DNA of 64,000 nucleotides from Methanobacteriota archaeon (GTDB lineage: Archaea; Thermoplasmatota; Poseidoniia; Poseidoniales; Poseidoniaceae): assembly GCA_002710015.1 (NCBI GenBank), contig PAOW01000033.1:8059-72058 (forward strand), in the 5' to 3' direction. Positions 34,100-47,827 of the stretch are shown here, piece by piece; position 1 is the stretch's first letter, and each line of letters opens with the position of its first letter. A model generated the notes under the pieces. That model searched no databases and was not told the origin of the DNA. It was given only the letters and a program-made list of their open reading frames with translations. The position numbers were made by a program, and so were the translations under genes.

Positions 34100-37051
34100 A
34101 TGGCCTGCGAAAGCGTTACCAATAGAAGACACTCATCCAAGAGGTCTATTGGGCTAGTTTCGCTTTTGATATTAACATCAATAGGCGGAATAATGGCAAC
34201 ACCTAGCGCTGCTGCTTCTGTTAGCGGTGACTACGAAATAACCGCATCCGTATCCCCTTTACCCGGAGATTACATGTCTGCTTGGGACCCTGTTTACATG
34301 GAAGTTGAAATAACAAACTCAGGGTTTTTCTACAACACTCAGCCAAGATCAGTAGAATGGTTCGTTTGTGAGGGCAACCAATTAGAGAATGACTGTTATA
34401 ACAATCGAGAGGGATACGGAATAGGTTCAATCGATCCAATAATTGTAGGTGAAAGTGTTACTTACAGTTTCTCAAACTATTTCTCACCAAATGGTGATGA
34501 AGGACTTTATACACTTGTCTATAGATTTATCGATTCCGATACAAACACAACAAATGATGCAGGCATTTACAATTTTAACTTGGTGAGGAAACTTGTTGAT
34601 GTTATATTTGAGGAGCAAGATATTCTTGGTCAATTAGAAGGACTTGCAAGTTACAATGATGTATTGATTCTAAACACTGACACAGACTACCTAACCAGTG
34701 TTGAGGGCATTGCAAAGTCTTGCGGTAGTTGTGGATTGGTTGCAAACCTTGGTTGGAAAATCACAGATAATTTTGGAGTTGAACTAGCGAACGCTACTAC
34801 TTCATACGCCGACCTTCCAAATTGGGGTGAAAGCTCCTTTACACGTAATCTTCCCCCAATTAATTTTGACACAGAAGGTGTCTATACGCTGTATTATGGA
34901 ATAATAAGTTCAACAGGAACACCTTCCGGAGATATGAACTCTTACAACGATCTACAAAGCTTAGAAATTACCTTTGACGACACCGTCGACTTGCAAATCG
35001 AATCTATGCATCCAAGTTATGCACCAAGTTCCGCAGTATACTATTATGGTAACAATAGTGTTTCAGTTTCGGTAGCCAATCTTGGAAACCATACTGTTGT
35101 AGAACCTCTAGTCAGATTCACGATCTTGACTCTCGATGAAAATATTGAATCACAACAAGATTGCCTCCCCGAGGAGATTATCCCAGGTGAATCATACGTT
35201 TGCAATTTCAACTTGAATGCGCTCGGTGATAAACGGCTTAGGGTTTTCGTTAGCGAAGCTTTGAATGAGGGACTAGATCAAAAGCCATCTGATAACACCC
35301 TAAATGTGATATCTGAAGTTGTTAGAGGAGAGATAAACCCTTTAATCGAGCAAACAAATTTCTTCGGTACTTACAAAACAGCAGACAACATTGATTTGAA
35401 TGCTAGAGTTAATCCAACTGCCGCTGCTCCGCTTTCATACACTTGGTGGATGAGCGGTATTATCCCGATTGGTTCTGGCCAAAACGTTTCAATCCCTGCA
35501 TCCACATTAGGACTTGGAGATCATTATCTTACTGTTCGTGCTACTGATGCTTTGGGAACATTGGAATCCGAAACCATACCCATTACTATATTCAACAGCA
35601 CTGATATCAGCATTGGAAACTGGTTGAACGGATCTGCTGTGACTAGGACGCACGCTACCGCTATTGCAGAATATGATTACCCGCTTGTTGGCGCCAATTA
35701 TGCCGTAGGTGAAAATCTAGAGCCCTTGCTGCGTATGTCAATCGATGTAATACCTACTACCAATGCTCCCGATGCTGGCATGGATTGGATGGAATTTGAC
35801 ATAAATCTAACAAATGTAATCCCAGATAATATCCCCAGAGAATCTATTGCAGTCCACAAATTAAACGGATACGAACAAGTCATATGGGAACCTTTGGACT
35901 CAGAAAATTTCTTTCAAGTTATAGATAATGATACTCTGCGTGTTAACATAACACAGAATATGGACTTAATCATCGTAGGAGATTTACCATCACCAGAAAT
36001 CGACCTTGACAATCCAATACTGACACTTTTGCCTGATGGTAAAATGAAACTAGATTGGAATTCTAGTGGAGACTTATCAAATCCCTATTTTGGAGGTTGG
36101 AAAATTTTCAGAGTAACCAGCCCGGTAACTGTATCTGCATACTTTCCAAACCCAGACGATGTTCCTAGTAGATTTGTATGGGAGGGATTGATGAAAGATT
36201 CCTTGTCTGCAACCTTGAACGGAACAATGAACTCTTGGATTGACGAGCGCTCATTAGAGACCGGAATTTGTGCATCATATGCTGTAATACCAACTGATAG
36301 GGCAGGTAATCCTGATTATTTAGAAGCAGAAGTCTCCCTTGTTGACGGCGTCCCAGGATTGACGTGTGGTGATGCAATTGACCCAACTGCTAGTGTCTCA
36401 GGATTAAAATCAAATGTTGTATATACCAACGATAGTGACTGCCATGCTGCAAATAGGAATTGGGACATGTGCTATGAATTAACCCTGTCATGGACATGGC
36501 CCGATAATGAGCCAAGTGGAGATCTCTCTTGGAACATATACAGAATTGAACAGAAACCTGAAGATGTAGATCTAAGATTTGTCACCCCGATTGCTACTGG
36601 ACTACAAAATGTGCCTGGAGAGCAAGGAAATTTCACTCAAACCGGACTTGAGTATGATGGAATAAGGCCTTACAGAACTTACTATTACATACTTACGCCA
36701 ATTGATAATATTGGTAATGAGTTGACTACTATTGGTGGTAGTTCTTCATCAAATGTCCACAGAGTCTACATTGAAGACCAATACTGGCAATACAACCAGC
36801 ATAGAATTCCAGAACCACCTGAACCACCTGAACCACCTTATGGCATTGAATGGTTAGGCGATTTAGAGGACTTTATGGAGCAAGAGAACTTTCAATTAGC
36901 AGGAATAATACTTCTAGTCACGATTGTAGTGAACTTCATAGGGTTACCAATTATACTCAAGAAAAGAAAAAGGATGGCAAGAGCGTTATCTAGAAGAAAA
37001 AATAGACAAGCAGAGAATTTAGATGATGATTTTGAAGATTTCTTTAACTAG
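34100..37051 (+). CDS. Large (983 aa) secreted, heavily N-glycosylation-sequon-rich surface protein with PEP-repeat stalk and C-terminal TM anchor
   Basis: Signal-peptide-like N-terminus and dozens of NxS/T sequons. PEPPEPPEPP precedes the hydrophobic helix LAGIILLVTIVVNFIGLPIIL, followed by a basic tail. There is no PGF-CTERM. Confidence 0.6.
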   Translation: MACESVTNRRHSSKRSIGLVSLLILTSIGGIMATPSAAASVSGDYEITASVSPLPGDYMSAWDPVYMEVEITNSGFFYNTQPRSVEWFVCEGNQLENDCYNNREGYGIGSIDPIIVGESVTYSFSNYFSPNGDEGLYTLVYRFIDSDTNTTNDAGIYNFNLVRKLVDVIFEEQDILGQLEGLASYNDVLILNTDTDYLTSVEGIAKSCGSCGLVANLGWKITDNFGVELANATTSYADLPNWGESSFTRNLPPINFDTEGVYTLYYGIISSTGTPSGDMNSYNDLQSLEITFDDTVDLQIESMHPSYAPSSAVYYYGNNSVSVSVANLGNHTVVEPLVRFTILTLDENIESQQDCLPEEIIPGESYVCNFNLNALGDKRLRVFVSEALNEGLDQKPSDNTLNVISEVVRGEINPLIEQTNFFGTYKTADNIDLNARVNPTAAAPLSYTWWMSGIIPIGSGQNVSIPASTLGLGDHYLTVRATDALGTLESETIPITIFNSTDISIGNWLNGSAVTRTHATAIAEYDYPLVGANYAVGENLEPLLRMSIDVIPTTNAPDAGMDWMEFDINLTNVIPDNIPRESIAVHKLNGYEQVIWEPLDSENFFQVIDNDTLRVNITQNMDLIIVGDLPSPEIDLDNPILTLLPDGKMKLDWNSSGDLSNPYFGGWKIFRVTSPVTVSAYFPNPDDVPSRFVWEGLMKDSLSATLNGTMNSWIDERSLETGICASYAVIPTDRAGNPDYLEAEVSLVDGVPGLTCGDAIDPTASVSGLKSNVVYTNDSDCHAANRNWDMCYELTLSWTWPDNEPSGDLSWNIYRIEQKPEDVDLRFVTPIATGLQNVPGEQGNFTQTGLEYDGIRPYRTYYYILTPIDNIGNELTTIGGSSSSNVHRVYIEDQYWQYNQHRIPEPPEPPEPPYGIEWLGDLEDFMEQENFQLAGIILLVTIVVNFIGLPIILKKRKRMARALSRRKNRQAENLDDDFEDFFN
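36810..36840 (+). repeat. In-frame 9-bp tandem repeat (x3) encoding PEPPEPPEPP stalk
   Basis: ccagaaccacctgaaccacctgaaccacct, seen directly in the sequence inside the 983-aa surface protein gene. Confidence 0.7.
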
Positions 37052-41754: not shown

Positions 41755-42867
41755 ATGGGCGTAGACACTCAGACCCTGCGAAAATGGTTGGAATCTTACG
41801 ATACCAATAGTATAACCATTGGAGTAGTCGCATCCCATTCTTCGCTGCAAATTCTACACGGCGCAAGACAGGAAGGTTTCAGAACCTTGGGAATTGCAGT
41901 TGGAGAAAACAGAAGAAAATTCTATTCAGCATTCCCCGGTGCTGACCCAGATGAGTGGTTAATGTTAGAAAACTATCAGCAAATGCTGGATTATGCAGAA
42001 TGGTTCAGAGAAAGAAATGTCATAATAATCCCACATGGTTCACTCGTTGAATATCTCGGTAGTGAAAATTTCAAAGGTTTGGAAGTCCCTACTTTTGGTA
42101 ACAGAGGTATATTACACTGGGAAAGCAGTCGAGAGAGGCAAAGGCAGTGGCTTGCAATGGGAGGTTGCTCAATGCCGAAAGTAATCGATGACCCTCATGA
42201 CATTGACGGGCCTGTAATAGTAAAATATGCAGGTGCAAAAGGAGGTGAAGGTTACTTCATTGCCAGAGATTACCGTGATTTTAAGAGGAATGTGAATATT
42301 GAACAAGAGTTTACAATCCAAGAATACGTATTAGGTTGCAGATACTACTTGCACTTCTTTTTTGACCCAATAGCAAAAGATGGTTACCAAGTGCAGGGCA
42401 TAGGCAAAAATGCTGGTAAAAATCTTGGGCGGCTTGAGCTAATGAGTATGGATAGAAGAGATGAATCGAATGTTGATGAGTTTTACAAACTTGGAAGCTT
42501 ACGTGACTTGAGAGAAATGAGCTTAGAGCCCTCATTTGTCGTTACTGGAAATCAGCCTGTTGTTATTAGAGAAAGTTTACTTCCTCGAGCATTTGAAATG
42601 GCAGAGGGGACCGTTGCAGCATCTTTTGAGCTGGAAGAAAATTCCAGAGGTATGATAGGTTCCTTTTGCTTAGAAACAATCGTTACAGACAAACTTGAGT
42701 TCAGAGTTTTTGAAATTAGTGCAAGAATCGTAGCCGGTTCTAATCCATTCGTTGGTGGATCGCCTTACAGCGACATAAACGAGCCATTCATGTCAACGGG
42801 AAGAAGAATTGCCCGCTCAATAAAGAAGGCAGTCTCAAATAATTGCATAGAAGATATACTATCGTAA
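41755..42867 (+). CDS. purP: 5-formaminoimidazole-4-carboxamide ribonucleotide synthetase (archaeal PurP, ATP-grasp)
   Basis: 370 aa. ITIGVVASHSSLQILHGARQEGFRTLGIA matches the PurP N-terminus (ITIATLGSHTSLHILKGAKLEGFKTLAI); ATP-grasp length. Confidence 0.8.
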   Translation: MGVDTQTLRKWLESYDTNSITIGVVASHSSLQILHGARQEGFRTLGIAVGENRRKFYSAFPGADPDEWLMLENYQQMLDYAEWFRERNVIIIPHGSLVEYLGSENFKGLEVPTFGNRGILHWESSRERQRQWLAMGGCSMPKVIDDPHDIDGPVIVKYAGAKGGEGYFIARDYRDFKRNVNIEQEFTIQEYVLGCRYYLHFFFDPIAKDGYQVQGIGKNAGKNLGRLELMSMDRRDESNVDEFYKLGSLRDLREMSLEPSFVVTGNQPVVIRESLLPRAFEMAEGTVAASFELEENSRGMIGSFCLETIVTDKLEFRVFEISARIVAGSNPFVGGSPYSDINEPFMSTGRRIARSIKKAVSNNCIEDILS

Positions 42868-44607
42868 TCAGTCATCTAATAATTCATCTAGGATATCTGA
42901 GGATTCTGATTCATCCTCTGAACCATCCCAATCACCGCTTTCAATCGCTGCGATTCTCTCTCTAGCTTCATTTATCTTGGCTGTTCTAGATTCTGGATCC
43001 TCTAAGTTAAACTCACAGATTAGCATTATCGGATCTCCGTTAGAAATCTCACCCTCATACTCTAATATCTCTCCACCTGCGTTACAGATAACTTGGAATT
43101 TTGTCGGGTCTTTTGACCTGCGCTTCTTATGTTTCTTGTAATGATGGACATATGCTTTGTAAGTTCCACCTGGAGCCTTTGATTCAGGCCAGACAACATT
43201 TTCAACTGGCTTCTTGGTCTCAGGTCTGACATTGGCATCAACATCCAACTCGCCTCCACAGGCTGATTCGCGATTACCTCCATGAATTCTCTCACCCGAC
43301 GGACAGACAACATGTAGGTCCAAGTCATTGTAATTATTCCACAAAAGGGATATTTGGACATCAGAAGATCTTGCTCCTTCTCGCTCTAATCTCTCTTTCA
43401 GTTCCTTTAATACCTGTTCTGTTGCCTTTATCGATTCTAATTCATCGGCTTCGTTAGCAACTATTTCAGCAAGGCGCTGTTCCTCTGCTTCAGCCATCTC
43501 TTGCTGTCTTTGCTCTTCCATCTCAATTGCGAGTCTTTCTTCTTCAGCGATACGCTCAGTTTCTTCTGCTATCAATGCAGTCTCTCTTTCTTCATCTGTC
43601 CCTCTTTCTTCAGGAGGTTCTAACTCGAATTCACATACTAGTAAAATCGGGTCTCCAGCCGATAGTTCTCCCTCGTAATGTTTGATTTCTCCGCCAGAGT
43701 TGACCACTACACGGAATTGTGTTGGATCTTTTGACCTGCGCTTCTTGTGTTTTTTGTAATGATGAACATAAACCTTGTAGTTGCCAGGAGGGGCTTTAAA
43801 ATCGGGCCACACAATATTTTCCACTGGCTTTTTAGTTTCAGGCCTTACATTAGCATCAACATCTAACTCTCCACCACATTCAGAAGTCTTGTTACCTCCA
43901 TGTATCCTCTCACCAGAAGGGCATAGAACGTGTAAGTCAAGATCGTTGTAGTTGTCCCACATGAGCGAGACTTGAACCTCGGAAGTTTTCGCTCCTTCCC
44001 TATCAAGTCTCTCTTCTAATTCCTGCTCTGCCTGCTCACTGGCCATTTGTGCTTCAAGCGCCTCAGATTCTTTCAACGCTTCAATCTCGGATTTCCTAGC
44101 TTCCTCTTCTTCTGCTAATTCCTGTTGCCTTTCAGCCTCTCGTTCCTCAGCAAGTCGCTTTTCCTCTGCGAGTCTTTCAGCTTCTCGTTCCTCAGCAAGC
44201 CGTCTTGCTTCATCTAACTCCGCTTGTCTCGCAGCTTCATATTCAGCCTTCTTTCTAGCTTCTTCAGCCTCTATCTCAGCAACTCTAGCTTCTTCTTCAG
44301 CAATCAATTTCTTTGCGGCTCTGTCAGCTAAATCTTTTCTTGCTTGTTCCTCTGCCAGAAGAATCGCCCTTTCATCTCTACGCTTGGATTCAAGGTGCCT
44401 CTCTACCTGAGCTAACTTCTTGTCAAACTCGTTATGAGCCTGCCTGAAATCAGGCGCACCTCTACGTGTCAAATCTTGCCTGTGAATAGTCATTGTTCGA
44501 GAGCTTTGATCGTCCTCTCTCACAAGCATGAACCAAATACCAAATAGAAAAGCACCGCCTAAAAAGCCGATAATCAGCCAAGAGGTCAGGTCCATGAGAC
44601 AAGCCAA
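42868..44607 (-). CDS. Membrane-anchored charged coiled-coil protein with two tandem copies of a ~130-aa Cys/His-bearing beta-domain (DUF2135/YfaP-like by motif memory)
   Basis: 579 aa. N-terminal TM, then E/R/A-rich coiled coil. The unit SLMWDNYNDLDLHVLCPSGERIHGGN..CGGELDVDANVRPETKKPVENIVWP...YKVYVHHYKKHKKRRSKDP occurs twice. The nucleotide copies lie at about 43611..43986 and 42975..43365. Confidence 0.6.
   Translation of the reverse strand: MACLMDLTSWLIIGFLGGAFLFGIWFMLVREDDQSSRTMTIHRQDLTRRGAPDFRQAHNEFDKKLAQVERHLESKRRDERAILLAEEQARKDLADRAAKKLIAEEEARVAEIEAEEARKKAEYEAARQAELDEARRLAEEREAERLAEEKRLAEEREAERQQELAEEEEARKSEIEALKESEALEAQMASEQAEQELEERLDREGAKTSEVQVSLMWDNYNDLDLHVLCPSGERIHGGNKTSECGGELDVDANVRPETKKPVENIVWPDFKAPPGNYKVYVHHYKKHKKRRSKDPTQFRVVVNSGGEIKHYEGELSAGDPILLVCEFELEPPEERGTDEERETALIAEETERIAEEERLAIEMEEQRQQEMAEAEEQRLAEIVANEADELESIKATEQVLKELKERLEREGARSSDVQISLLWNNYNDLDLHVVCPSGERIHGGNRESACGGELDVDANVRPETKKPVENVVWPESKAPGGTYKAYVHHYKKHKKRRSKDPTKFQVICNAGGEILEYEGEISNGDPIMLICEFNLEDPESRTAKINEARERIAAIESGDWDGSEDESESSDILDELLDD
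42975..43986 (-). repeat. Intragenic direct duplication (~0.38 kb units about 620 bp apart)
   Basis: Nucleotide stretches near 43081.. and 43701.. are closely similar by eye (for example ...tcttttgacctgcgcttcttatgtttcttgtaatgatggacatatgc... versus ...tcttttgacctgcgcttcttgtgttttttgtaatgatgaacataaacc...). They encode the two protein-domain copies. Confidence 0.65.
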
Positions 44608-44664
44608 TGCTAACAGGAACTTATTACCATCGCTGAAAAAATCAAAAAATTCATGCAGAATTAC

Positions 44665-47103
44665 CTAATTTGAGAGGTCCTTAACCTTCTCTACCAAATC
44701 CATGTTGCGCAATCTCCAGATACCGATTGGAGTCATCGCAACTGCGATTATCAATACACCAAATAATAGTTCAAATGCTACACTATCGACCAACAAAACT
44801 GGGAAGTAAAATTGCCAAGAAGAAAACGATGCTGCCAAGCCGACTGCACCAAGATAGGCGAACAGAACCCCTATCAATCCACCAATTATACCGATTAGCA
44901 CGCTTTCAAACAATAGCATGATACCAAGTCTGGTTGTCGATGCTCCTAACACTCTCAAAGTCGCCAATTCGAAATCTCTCTCAGCTACATTCATTATCAT
45001 CGTGTTTAGCATAACTGCAATAGTAAACAGCAATCCTAGATACATAATTGCTTGGAACAAATCGGTTTGTTTTTCAATCAAAGATTCAACCCCATTTAGT
45101 AGGGTTACTCTTTCGACAATACCTACTGATATCTCGCCCAAACTGAAGTCAACCTCAACTCCATCAGGCATCATAATGTAGACAGAGGTTGCATTAACAC
45201 CAGTAATTTGAGTTAAATCCTCTCTATCAAAATACATAGTTCTGGATAATTCTCCACGTGTTATTCCTACGATTTTTACCTCTGATTCCTCTCCGTTGAG
45301 TGTAACTAGTCTAGTTTCACCTATTTCCCACCCAAGGAATTTCATCGCACCTTCGTCCATCAATACTTGCAATTCATTATCTGATTTTTCAGGTAAATCA
45401 CCACTTAGTAGGTTTACAGAACGCATTTTAGAACTGAAATCACTCAGGCCCACCATTGTGAAAATTCGGGCTACACCGCTAGAATCTTCGACCGAGCCGA
45501 GGGGCATTTCTATTACCAATTCCCACTCACAAGAATTACCTTCTGCCCAATCTACAACTGCGCCCTCACTACCTGGATTCACGTAAACTTGTGCATCCCA
45601 ATTTTGATCATCCTCAATACTAGATACTAGCGTATTCTCAAACCCTGCGGATATCATTTGTATAGACCCAAATAGCATTAGGGAAATTCCAACAGCTAGG
45701 AACGTCATTGTCAGCCTGATTGGCTTCCTGACACTTGATCTCACTGAGAGGCTTAGCGTTGTGGGTAGCCAAGAAGTTATTTTCTTAATTATATTCGAAC
45801 CAATTTTTACTTCATTTTGGCCACTCAAAACTTCCAGCGGATCTATTCGGCTAGCTTTCAATGCTGGAAATGCACCTGAAAAGAAAACTACTGCCATAGT
45901 TAGAGATACGACTGTTGTATATGTCGTAAGGGGGATGTCACGTTTTATTATTGGAACTCCAACAATATCTTGATACAAATCAAGCATCCAATTAGCTCCA
46001 TATGGACCTAAAAGACAACCGATTAGACATCCGATTCCGCCTATAATTACTGGAGCAATCATATAACCTTGAAGTAATGATTTCCTAGAAACACCCAAAG
46101 TTCTCAACACTGCAATTTCTCTTGCTTGGCTTTGTACTAATCTTTGGAGGCTCAGAATAATTGTTATAGAGGCAATAGCAGCAATCATCAGAGTAAATGG
46201 AACAGTAGTTCTTTTTGCACCTTCAAGGTCTTGACGCATTACTTCGACGGCCTCATATTGGCCTCTGTCTCTGACTCTAGCATCAAGATTCTCAACTTCG
46301 AGGACATCCTCAACAATTTGCTTTACTCGATCGATTTCATCTCCTTCGTACTCCTCAGTATCAGGCAAATCGTAACTCGGTTTTCCTTCGACATCAAGCA
46401 TTATTGTATTACTTGACCCAACTGTATTACCAGTAAGTCTTTCCATACCCAAATCGGACAAATATCCAACCACATAATCTCCTTCTTCTGGAGGAAAGAA
46501 AGTCCCTTCAGGAGCCATTAATATGTGAAGTGGGTGAAAGCCAATACCAACAATTTCAAATTCTGCTGAAGAATTTCCAGCACCAATTAATATCATATCA
46601 CCCAGGTCAAGATCCAAGGCTTCAGTAACATGAGCATCTATAACAATCTCATCTGAATTGCTCGCCAATCTACCTTTGGAATGTTTATCAGGCATCCAAA
46701 CGGTGTCGACATTTGCACCCACCGGTATACCATGCCACAATGAATTTATTGTCACACTCCCTGTATCTGTTGATTGAAACATTGCGCCTTTAACAATTGA
46801 TCTGCCTTCACAGTGATCTAAATTTGAGGTCAAGTTCCACCTTTCATTCAATTCAGAACAAAAGGACTCAACCTGCTCTGAAGTCCACATTATGCTACCA
46901 TTATCAATCCACAAGTCTGCAAGATTTGCCCCTTCTTCATCGTCACCATGCATAGTTGAATACATATTGTCAAGATTATGTGAATACCCACCAAACGTTA
47001 TTCCTGCAAAAACACCAACTGAGACCATGAAAACTACTGCTAGAAGCCTTAACTTCGTGCGCCATAGGCTTCTCATCAATCTCTTGTTTAACAGTGCAGA
47101 CAA
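44665..47103 (-). CDS. ABC transporter permease, MacB/FtsX-like with two FtsX domains and large extracytoplasmic loops
   Basis: 812 aa. An N-terminal TM, a large periplasmic-type domain, a 3-TM FtsX unit, a second large loop and a second FtsX unit. Immediately upstream of the ABC ATPase. Confidence 0.75.
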   Translation of the reverse strand: MSALLNKRLMRSLWRTKLRLLAVVFMVSVGVFAGITFGGYSHNLDNMYSTMHGDDEEGANLADLWIDNGSIMWTSEQVESFCSELNERWNLTSNLDHCEGRSIVKGAMFQSTDTGSVTINSLWHGIPVGANVDTVWMPDKHSKGRLASNSDEIVIDAHVTEALDLDLGDMILIGAGNSSAEFEIVGIGFHPLHILMAPEGTFFPPEEGDYVVGYLSDLGMERLTGNTVGSSNTIMLDVEGKPSYDLPDTEEYEGDEIDRVKQIVEDVLEVENLDARVRDRGQYEAVEVMRQDLEGAKRTTVPFTLMIAAIASITIILSLQRLVQSQAREIAVLRTLGVSRKSLLQGYMIAPVIIGGIGCLIGCLLGPYGANWMLDLYQDIVGVPIIKRDIPLTTYTTVVSLTMAVVFFSGAFPALKASRIDPLEVLSGQNEVKIGSNIIKKITSWLPTTLSLSVRSSVRKPIRLTMTFLAVGISLMLFGSIQMISAGFENTLVSSIEDDQNWDAQVYVNPGSEGAVVDWAEGNSCEWELVIEMPLGSVEDSSGVARIFTMVGLSDFSSKMRSVNLLSGDLPEKSDNELQVLMDEGAMKFLGWEIGETRLVTLNGEESEVKIVGITRGELSRTMYFDREDLTQITGVNATSVYIMMPDGVEVDFSLGEISVGIVERVTLLNGVESLIEKQTDLFQAIMYLGLLFTIAVMLNTMIMNVAERDFELATLRVLGASTTRLGIMLLFESVLIGIIGGLIGVLFAYLGAVGLAASFSSWQFYFPVLLVDSVAFELLFGVLIIAVAMTPIGIWRLRNMDLVEKVKDLSN

Positions 47104-47140: not shown

Positions 47141-47827
47141 TTACTCAGGATTTTCAACGACAGTGTCTGAAATTATTTTTCCACTATCAACTCTAATTAC
47201 TCTGGTAGAATATTTTACTAAGCTCTCATCATGAGTTACAAATACCGATGTGATTTTTTCTTTTTCACAAGCCTTGACTAATGCTTCCATAACTTTTGTA
47301 CTGGTCAAAGTATCCAAATTTCCAGTCAATTCATCTCCAAGAAGTAGATTGGGCTTTTTTGCGATACTTCTTGCTATTGCAACTCGCTGCTGTTGACCTC
47401 CACTAATTTCACCTGGAAATCTATCGACTTCGTTACTCAATCCAACTAAATCAAGTAGGTCTCTTGCTCGTTGTTCGTCTTTTTTGCCAGATAATTCTTG
47501 AATTAGAAGTATATTTTCAAGAACCGTTAAATCTTGTAATAGATTAAAAAATTGAAAAACATAACCGATATTTTCTCTCCTAAAGGAAGTCATCCTCTCA
47601 GAGTGGTTCCTTGGAACTTCAATACCATTAAACGTGTATTGTCCAGAAGTCGGACTGTCCAATCCTGATAAGCAGTTCAGCAACGTAGTTTTTCCTGAAC
47701 CGGATGGACCAAGCAACAAAACTCTCTCTCCTTTTTCTATTGAAATATCAACTCCATCCAATGCTTTTACAACACCTGATGCCATCTCATAATGCCTTTT
47801 TATGTCCTCCATCTCAATCATAGGCAT
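47141..47827 (-). CDS. ABC transporter ATP-binding protein (MacB/LolD-type)
   Basis: 228 aa. Walker A LLGPSGSGKTTLLN, ABC signature LSGGQQQRVAIAR, and Walker B LLLGDELTGNLD. Confidence 0.85.
   Translation of the reverse strand: MPMIEMEDIKRHYEMASGVVKALDGVDISIEKGERVLLLGPSGSGKTTLLNCLSGLDSPTSGQYTFNGIEVPRNHSERMTSFRRENIGYVFQFFNLLQDLTVLENILLIQELSGKKDEQRARDLLDLVGLSNEVDRFPGEISGGQQQRVAIARSIAKKPNLLLGDELTGNLDTLTSTKVMEALVKACEKEKITSVFVTHDESLVKYSTRVIRVDSGKIISDTVVENPE

Follow-up and report, generated by a model that had tools for sequence, protein, structure and literature searches.

The best described relatives of the protein considered here belong to the YfaP family (COG4676), which includes YfaP of Escherichia coli and MagA and MagF of Pseudomonas aeruginosa. 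The latter two join MagD, a homolog of alpha-2-macroglobulin, in a complex associated with the inner membrane (PMC3735191). Our search of the literature found nothing on DUF2135, the domain shared by these proteins, and only incidental mention of yfaP; it was COG4676 that led to the MagA/MagF work. Here we describe a gene of the Poseidoniales (Marine Group II archaea) that encodes two such domains behind a single membrane anchor. It occupies an unbroken open reading frame (ORF) on the reverse strand at 42868–44607 of a 64,000-nt stretch of contig PAOW01000033.1 (henceforth the window); all positions are those of the window, and residue numbers are those of the 575-aa protein. It is a genuine gene under strong conservation, and it represents a lineage-specific version of a domain family that is known and named but uncharacterised. 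What is specific to it, and sets it apart from YfaP, is the combination of a predicted N-out transmembrane (TM) anchor, long charged helices, tandem domain copies, a polybasic loop and an acidic tail.

A sequence-only reading of the window had noted a resemblance of the domain to DUF2135/YfaP, and profile comparison bears this out. A profile of the archaeal domain aligns with residues 142–213 of E. coli YfaP with an hhalign probability of 97.8% (E 1e-12), and on this evidence it and the C-terminal domain of that protein (COG4676/DUF2135) are homologs. The two beta-sandwiches share the motifs LxW...DLDLH...P.G, G.LD.D, PE(N) and G.Y.V.V..Y, the last reading G.Y.VY.NYY in the comparison with E. 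coli YfaP. Against the Pfam model PF09906 (DUF2135, renamed YfaP_C) the whole protein scores 27.9 bits (cut-off 22), the single copies 20.2 and 12.7 bits and E. coli YfaP 66.4 bits; each copy falls under the cut-off because the model spans just the last ~48 residues of a domain of ~120. Outside the domain the proteins differ. E. coli YfaP has a signal peptide (its sequence starts MRKIFLPLLLVALSPVAHS), whereas the Poseidoniales protein has none, beginning instead with an acidic N-terminus free of lysine and arginine (K/R) and a TM helix (78/78 orthologs). The N-terminal domain of YfaP (aa ~20–140) is absent here: a helix precedes each domain, and the alignment is confined to the YfaP residues given above. 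Finally, the YfaP/Mag operon, with its alpha-2-macroglobulin homolog (yfaS/magD) and yfaQ/T/A, is not found at the Poseidoniales locus.

AlphaFold2 (AF2), supplied with an alignment of domain homologs, confidently predicts a beta-sandwich of nine strands, capped at its N-terminus by a short helix (predicted local distance difference test (pLDDT) 91.6, predicted template modelling score (pTM) 0.87). When this model was compared with the Protein Data Bank (PDB) using Foldseek, as the sequence-only reading had advised for one repeat unit, no significant match was returned: PLAT, MmpS and transglutaminase barrels reached TM-scores of 0.3–0.39 with E>0.03. Sequence searches of the PDB with a single domain, or with a profile built solely from Marine Group II sequences, likewise gave no meaningful match, and neither approach found a solved structure for the YfaP_C family. 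No C2 domain was matched in Pfam, and the Foldseek similarities to C2/PLAT were insignificant (TM-score 0.3–0.4).

A broader family profile (A3) did produce marginal PDB matches (E 0.003–0.007) to the C-terminal beta-jelly-rolls of the subtilases Tk-SP (3AFG), KP-43 (1WMD) and SubHal (5FAX), with which the domain shares the strand–turn–strand 'L.W....DLDL.l..P.G' and a later strand 'G.Y.v.V..Y'. The likeness was not recovered by Foldseek, and the subtilase domains are appended to secreted proteases, whereas the Poseidoniales protein carries no catalytic domain. Among 29 diverse family members searched against Pfam at E≤1, nine gave weak matches to P_proprotein and five to PPC. The jelly-roll domain of Tk-SP binds two Ca2+ (PMC3599501). 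We tentatively tie the YfaP_C family, by these distant sequence similarities, to the Ca-binding P-domain/PPC jelly rolls.

The family is large. A profile search of 1.84 billion representatives (clusters at 50% identity) returned 8,825 proteins at E≤1e-3, of which 891 also passed E≤1e-30, with 1 to 12 copies of the domain per protein. Fusion partners include a zinc ribbon together with a TM segment and a C-type lectin, CarboxypepD_reg together with NPCBM, GYF_2, and an apparent von Willebrand A domain that lacks Pfam confirmation. The full-length query has at least 1,331 database matches at E≤1e-10. The named matches are 'hypothetical protein' or 'uncharacterized protein YfaP (DUF2135 family)', JGI and NCBI use 'YfaP family', and no NCBIfam model matches the protein. 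The statement of the sequence-only reading that fusion of this fold to a TM-anchored coiled coil is not known is correct for the literature but not for the databases, where these matches were already deposited. No second gene bearing the domain was found in the window.

The same domain, with the preceding 'R.xxxGA' helix, occurs in the phage family phrog_1735 (E 1.9e-25 to the PHROG profile, positions 414–528). Examples are gp39 of Salmonella phage Det7 (L088:2774-4789) and gp32 of Pseudomonas phage Arace01 (L087:4777-6774), and by tblastn the family is present in 410 phage records spanning Ackermannviridae, N4-like, Bacillus SP-15, Caulobacter and Microcystis phages. The phage proteins share the domain and its capping helix, but are soluble, ~670 aa long and unrelated in their N- and C-terminal regions; their genes sit among early and metabolic phage genes, and several are mis-annotated as 'DNA-directed RNA polymerase'. 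Proteins from other marine lineages (P0123, P0127, P0067, P0076 and P0077) are built on a similar plan, though their spacers are unrelated: basic residues come directly after a helix at the N-terminus, the long spacer consists of acidic repeats or is rich in Arg and Ser, and a single YfaP_C-like domain closes the chain. The genomic context of two distant homologs (P0070 and P0067) was uninformative. A candidate soluble single-domain homolog (P0033), which would have spoken for a cytoplasmic location, was discarded, being a frameshift fragment of a syntenic ortholog in a long-read assembly.

Within the window protein the domain, ~120–140 aa long, is present twice, as the sequence-only reading had described: 95 of 121 residues are identical between copies (79% at the protein level) and the start-to-start spacing is 618 nt. 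Local self-alignment shows the duplicated unit to be larger than the domain, at ~200 aa, since it takes in ~60 residues of the preceding helix: copy 1 spans aa 138–338 (43582–44184, reverse strand, as are all features of the gene) and copy 2 aa 345–546 (42958–43563). The copies had been put at about 80% nucleotide identity, and the duplication taken as recent; neither claim survived measurement. Measured across the 423-nt domain, the copies share 70.7% of their DNA sequence; the figure rises to 73% for the best 270 nt and falls to 67% for the unit as a whole. Third codon positions are 41–43% identical and the proportion of synonymous differences (pS = 0.81) is past saturation, while non-synonymous divergence (dN) is 0.17. 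Across the proteins compared dN between copies ranges from 0.03 to 0.17, indicative of purifying selection. Saturated synonymous sites together with a low dN mark the duplication as an old one and show that purifying selection acts strongly on both copies.

Orthologs tell a similar story. GTDB species genomes gave 519 confirmed loci, the best 80 of which are all from Poseidoniales; copy number, which the sequence-only reading had proposed to check, was scored in 85 loci, and 139 domain sequences were placed in a tree. Two domains are encoded at 71/85 loci, and seven loci hold intact single-domain genes (L047, L066, L068, L071, L078, L082 and L084). Across the 27 genomes of the window's own clade the first (D1) and second (D2) domains already form separate clades: D1 orthologs are 79–96% identical to D1 of the window (87–96% without L030) and 75–81% identical to its D2. 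In the tree as a whole copies cluster by host clade first and split into D1 and D2 second, the two being reciprocally monophyletic inside each of four host clades. In Poseidonia both copies of one protein are 88–98% identical, and in one such genome (L075, Poseidonia sp.; domains at ORF aa 258–398 and 465–605) they share 98% of protein and 93% of DNA sequence with a synonymous divergence (dS) of 0.35, as against saturated dS in the window; this is evidence that gene conversion or re-duplication took place recently in the Poseidonia lineage concerned. Unit spacing is 201–208 aa in every clade. Copy number (one or two) and the similarity of the copies thus vary among clades. The overall pattern fits a tandem unit that has been repeatedly duplicated, lost or homogenised by gene conversion (concerted evolution), and the two domains stem from a helix-plus-domain unit of ~200 aa that was duplicated in tandem long ago.

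It might be argued that the repeat is nonetheless a recent event, or a collapsed or expanded artefact of assembly, and many metagenomic gene calls of the family are indeed broken in or near it. We give this hardly any credence. Gene calls identical over all 575 aa come from 8 independent contigs of the ENA, TARA and JGI metagenome assemblies, and because the identical two-copy protein recurs on all of them the internal repeat is no assembly artefact. The predominance of two-copy loci, the saturated synonymous sites and the separability of D1 and D2 orthologs in 27 genomes all run the same way, and for the window lineage both versions of the argument were rejected. As to the databases themselves, most short matches to the protein (P0001-P0084, P0336, P0339) are fragments broken inside or beside the repeat, and at least two full-length metagenome entries look like chimeras of different clades; evidently the tandem repeat fragments or mis-joins short-read assemblies.

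Residue conservation was counted over 187 domains from 143 representative proteins. Invariant or nearly so are D27, D29, D54, D56, N58, E68, N69, W22, G51 and G80, and all family-invariant residues are retained in the second copy. Cysteines fare differently: C34 is found in 53/187 domains, C49 in 95/187 and C130 in 27/187. The sequence-only reading had pictured a metal site built from conserved Cys, His and Asp. Its aspartate part is plausible, D27, D29, D54 and D56 being near-invariant, whereas the cysteines are not conserved in the family and their low counts rule out a Cys-based site. Since it is Asp, Asn and Glu residues, not cysteines, that are invariant, a hard-ligand (Ca-type) metal site in the domain is plausible. 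Of the 53 domains with C34, 49 also have C49, yet C49 occurs without C34 in 46 domains, ruling out an obligate C34–C49 disulfide.

The coding sequence itself (42868–44595; 575 aa plus stop) begins at the ATG at 44595, the start used in public gene calls and the likely true start of the gene, although the ORF can be extended 5′ as far as a TTG at 44607. One database entry with 100% identity (P0229, from a metagenome-assembled genome) carries the NCBI name 'hypothetical protein CMB16_06355 [Euryarchaeota archaeon]'. A TATA-box-like element, GGTAATAAG, lies at 44619–44627 on the reverse strand, 24–32 nt upstream of the ATG, and suggests that the gene may have its own promoter and a leaderless mRNA. 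The DNA 5′ of the ATG (44610–44640) is conserved, and in some genomes an in-frame reading 'M.TGDGNKSQ...' is possible; a translatable upstream stretch exists in orthologs L007, L010, L013, L016, L027 and L029, 'GDGNK' spanning the TATA-like stretch. In the window this reading lacks a start codon. Because the conserved bases include the TATA-like element, the apparent extension is probably promoter DNA rather than protein.

Full-length AF2 modelling orders the protein as TM helix, disordered linker, helix, sandwich 1, helix, sandwich 2, helix and disordered acidic tail. The TM helix (aa 3–27; 44515–44589), with a conserved GGAFxxG motif, is the single hydrophobic N-terminal helix that the sequence-only reading had also found. 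It is followed by a juxtamembrane linker (aa 28–50; 44446–44514), predicted to be disordered (pLDDT <50 for aa 32–49), which runs into a conserved motif ('PDFxxAHNEFDRKLAEVE') in which F50, K60 and L61 are invariant. Stalk helix 1 (aa 51–200; 43996–44445) is 150 residues long, uninterrupted and rich in E, A, R and K; inside it lies a 15-aa (45-nt) tandem repeat of AEEREAERLAEEKRL-like units (44129–44211; 84% identity). Beta-sandwich copy 1 (aa 207–325; 43621–43977) stands behind its capping helix 'ELEERLDREGA' and carries the polybasic loop KKHKKRRSK (aa 281–289; 43729–43755), where AF2 confidence is lower (pLDDT 68 for the block 91–100). This loop is kept in Poseidoniales, whereas bacterial homologs have 'NHGxxDP' in its place. 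Stalk helix 2 (aa 334–405; 43381–43596), 72 residues long and acidic, leads to beta-sandwich copy 2 (aa 413–531; 43003–43359) with its own KKHKKRRSK loop (aa 487–495; 43111–43137). The protein closes with a helix (aa 534–552) and a disordered acidic tail ending SSDILDELLDD (together 42871–42996); the ending '[ST]PD(I)L.(D/E)LL(D/E)D' is common but not universal among orthologs. The idea that an acidic tail follows each copy accordingly applies to the second domain alone, what follows the first being the predicted helix 2.

The stalk is indeed the very long E/R/A-rich region that had been noted (E 30%, A 21%, R 12%, L 10%, K 8%), and AF2 renders aa 51–200 as a single helix. The same reading took it for a heptad coiled coil, which the data do not support: no heptad register was detectable, the hydrophobic occupancy over the seven positions being flat (4, 5, 3, 3, 1, 4, 3), and the strongest periodicity, itself weak, was 3.65 as against 3.5 for a canonical coiled coil. 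LIVMFWY residues make up 16% of the stalk, E+D 34% and K+R 20%, and 140 aa of it contain 23 opposite-charge pairs at i/i+4 and 29 at i/i+3. In the monomer AF2 model helix 1 is one helix (pLDDT 80–93); its net charge is negative, which is atypical for single alpha-helices of the ER/K type. A single-alpha-helix-like stalk, or a non-canonical bundle, is more likely than a heptad coiled coil. If straight, helix 1 would be ~22 nm long and helix 2 ~11 nm, and spacer length may change through expansion of the 45-nt repeat.

Where in the cell might this protein reside? Counted over 78 orthologs, the stretch ahead of the TM helix includes no K/R and 90 acidic residues (D/E), and the 15 residues after the helix include 247 K/R. 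By the positive-inside rule this distribution of charge around the helix places the bulk of the protein in the cytoplasm, and we infer that only the short acidic N-terminus lies outside. Two further observations are consistent with such a placement: phrog_1735 (Det7 gp39) carries the domain without a signal peptide, and ~70% identity of the domain across the order is unusual for a surface-exposed protein. We lean, with reservations, towards a membrane-tethered scaffold in which rigid helices space two cation-stabilised binding modules off the inner face of the membrane, where they hold a conserved partner. The protein would be bitopic, with an N-out anchor and its bulk in the cytoplasm; the helices would act as rigid, probably single-alpha-helix-like, spacers that keep one domain some 20 nm and the other some 35 nm off the membrane. 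Both domains would be P-domain/PPC-like jelly rolls in which the cluster of invariant Asp, Asn and Glu residues takes up a divalent cation (Ca2+ being the most likely), and, together with the lineage-specific polybasic loops, they would bind a conserved partner, whether protein or polyanion. Its role would be that of a scaffold or tether rather than an enzyme. A binding role draws support from MagA and MagF, the sole COG4676 proteins to have been studied: both take part, without being enzymes, in a complex associated with the membrane (PMC3735191).

Several points weigh against this scaffold. The topology rests solely on the positive-inside rule; characterised relatives are periplasmic (E. coli YfaP, with its signal peptide, and MagA/MagF); many bacterial homologs are lipoprotein-like or fused to the extracytoplasmic domains Lectin_C, CarboxypepD_reg or NPCBM; and Ca-binding jelly rolls are typically extracellular. 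Much of this speaks for the main rival, a stalked binder of the opposite orientation, in which the TM helix is a signal anchor, the C-terminus lies outside and the charged helices raise Ca2+-stabilised jelly rolls clear of the membrane, or as far as the S-layer space, to bind polysaccharide, protein or particles, by a logic like that of TolA-like or SlaB-like stalks or of PPC/P-domain accessory modules. The periplasmic location of characterised or annotated relatives, the Lectin_C, NPCBM and CarboxypepD_reg fusions and lipoprotein-like leaders of bacterial homologs, and the weak homology to the Ca2+-binding jelly rolls of secreted proteases are all as it would predict. C34 and C49, which occur together in 49/53 C34 domains, could form a disulfide outside the cell, where seawater Ca2+ would fill the Asp-rich site. 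We nevertheless consider an extracellular location the less probable one and rather doubtful: the K/R-free acidic tip and the R/K residues after the TM helix, in 78/78 orthologs, reverse the charge pattern that a Sec signal peptide or a type II anchor would have; conservation as high as this across the order is atypical of exposed proteins; the 46 domains with C49 and no C34 speak against an obligate disulfide; and the domain recurs in phage proteins without signal peptides.

A more specific version of the cytoplasmic placement can also be framed. A single N-terminal TM anchor, a long charged spacer and one or more C-terminal globular binding domains are common to ZipA, TolA and synaptotagmin/E-Syt, and synaptotagmin adds a short N-out tail, two tandem Ca2+-binding beta-sandwiches and a polybasic patch. 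The likeness to these proteins is one of architecture alone, no relationship of sequence or fold having been detected, and the gene has no TolQR or FtsZ-related neighbours. By such analogy the protein could be a cation-responsive tether, its jelly rolls, carried on single-helix rulers (~20 and 35 nm), reversibly capturing some conserved structure of the cell, be it nucleoid, ribosomes, cytoskeleton or another membrane, via the Asp cluster and polybasic loops. We regard this as a long shot, the least probable of the proposals concerning what the protein does.

The genomic setting is that of a fixed locus. At every Poseidoniales locus examined the gene stands tail-to-tail with purP, always between an HTH_10 gene (with or without an ABC/FtsX pair) and the convergent PurP gene, in a conserved housekeeping neighbourhood that includes tryptophan (Trp) dioxygenase, Rpb6, CtaA/CtaB and shikimate genes. 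The domain is ~70% identical across the order, compared with 42–65% for the neighbouring TDO, COX15 and DHQS in the same genomes. We read the gene as a vertically inherited core gene of the Poseidoniales. In the window the purP-like gene (41755–42867, forward strand) meets the stop codon of the gene (42868–42870, reverse strand) with zero intergenic bases; the tail-to-tail junction is kept across Poseidoniales, with a small variable gap elsewhere. Farther off, a 983-aa ORF (34100–37051, forward strand) that has no Pfam family on record is conserved in the syntenic block and adjoins an LTD-domain gene.

Upstream, on the same strand, lie a MacB/FtsX-type permease (44665–47103, reverse strand), ~70 nt from the gene, and beyond it an ATP-binding cassette (ABC) ATPase (47141–47827, reverse strand). 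This raises the possibility that the protein is an accessory subunit of the transporter, working by a mechanotransmission like that of FtsEX, a family that drives the coiled-coil-plus-globular partners EnvC, PcsB and CwlO. A long helix joined to a globular domain would fit that pattern, and the ABC–FtsX pair is found directly upstream in several deep clades, including the single-domain loci L066, L078, L082 and L084. But the pair is present at 33/84 loci (roughly 40%), absent from the rest and inverted in L047, the gene staying in place throughout. Nor do the two co-vary: permease identity to the window is 43–48% where the YfaP-like domains are ~90% identical, and 66–68% in the distant L082 and L084. 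Moreover, the predicted topology puts the domains on the side of the membrane opposite the permease's extracytoplasmic domain. Because its presence is variable, its divergence is decoupled and the gene has its own promoter-like element, we do not regard the ABC/FtsX pair as an obligate partner, and we judge a transporter role improbable. Seen across genomes the pair comes and goes like a cassette while the locus itself stays fixed, and permease identity to the window is bimodal, about 45% in close relatives and 66–79% in some others (L005–L084); recombination may thus have replaced the pair.

Taken together, the analyses extend what is known of the domain family: the real domain is ~120 residues long, against the 48 of the Pfam model, the family, with its 8,825 clusters (50% identity), is very large, and the domain is now placed in a widespread phage protein family, phrog_1735. 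Current ideas are not overturned, and the protein recommends itself to structural biologists and biochemists. Should the cation-responsive tether prove true, it would provide the first function for the YfaP_C family and phrog_1735, and the architecture would converge on that of synaptotagmin/E-Syt. The Poseidoniales, as yet uncultured, rank with the most abundant archaea of the plankton; given ~70% identity across the order and a fixed housekeeping locus, the protein probably matters for their cell biology.

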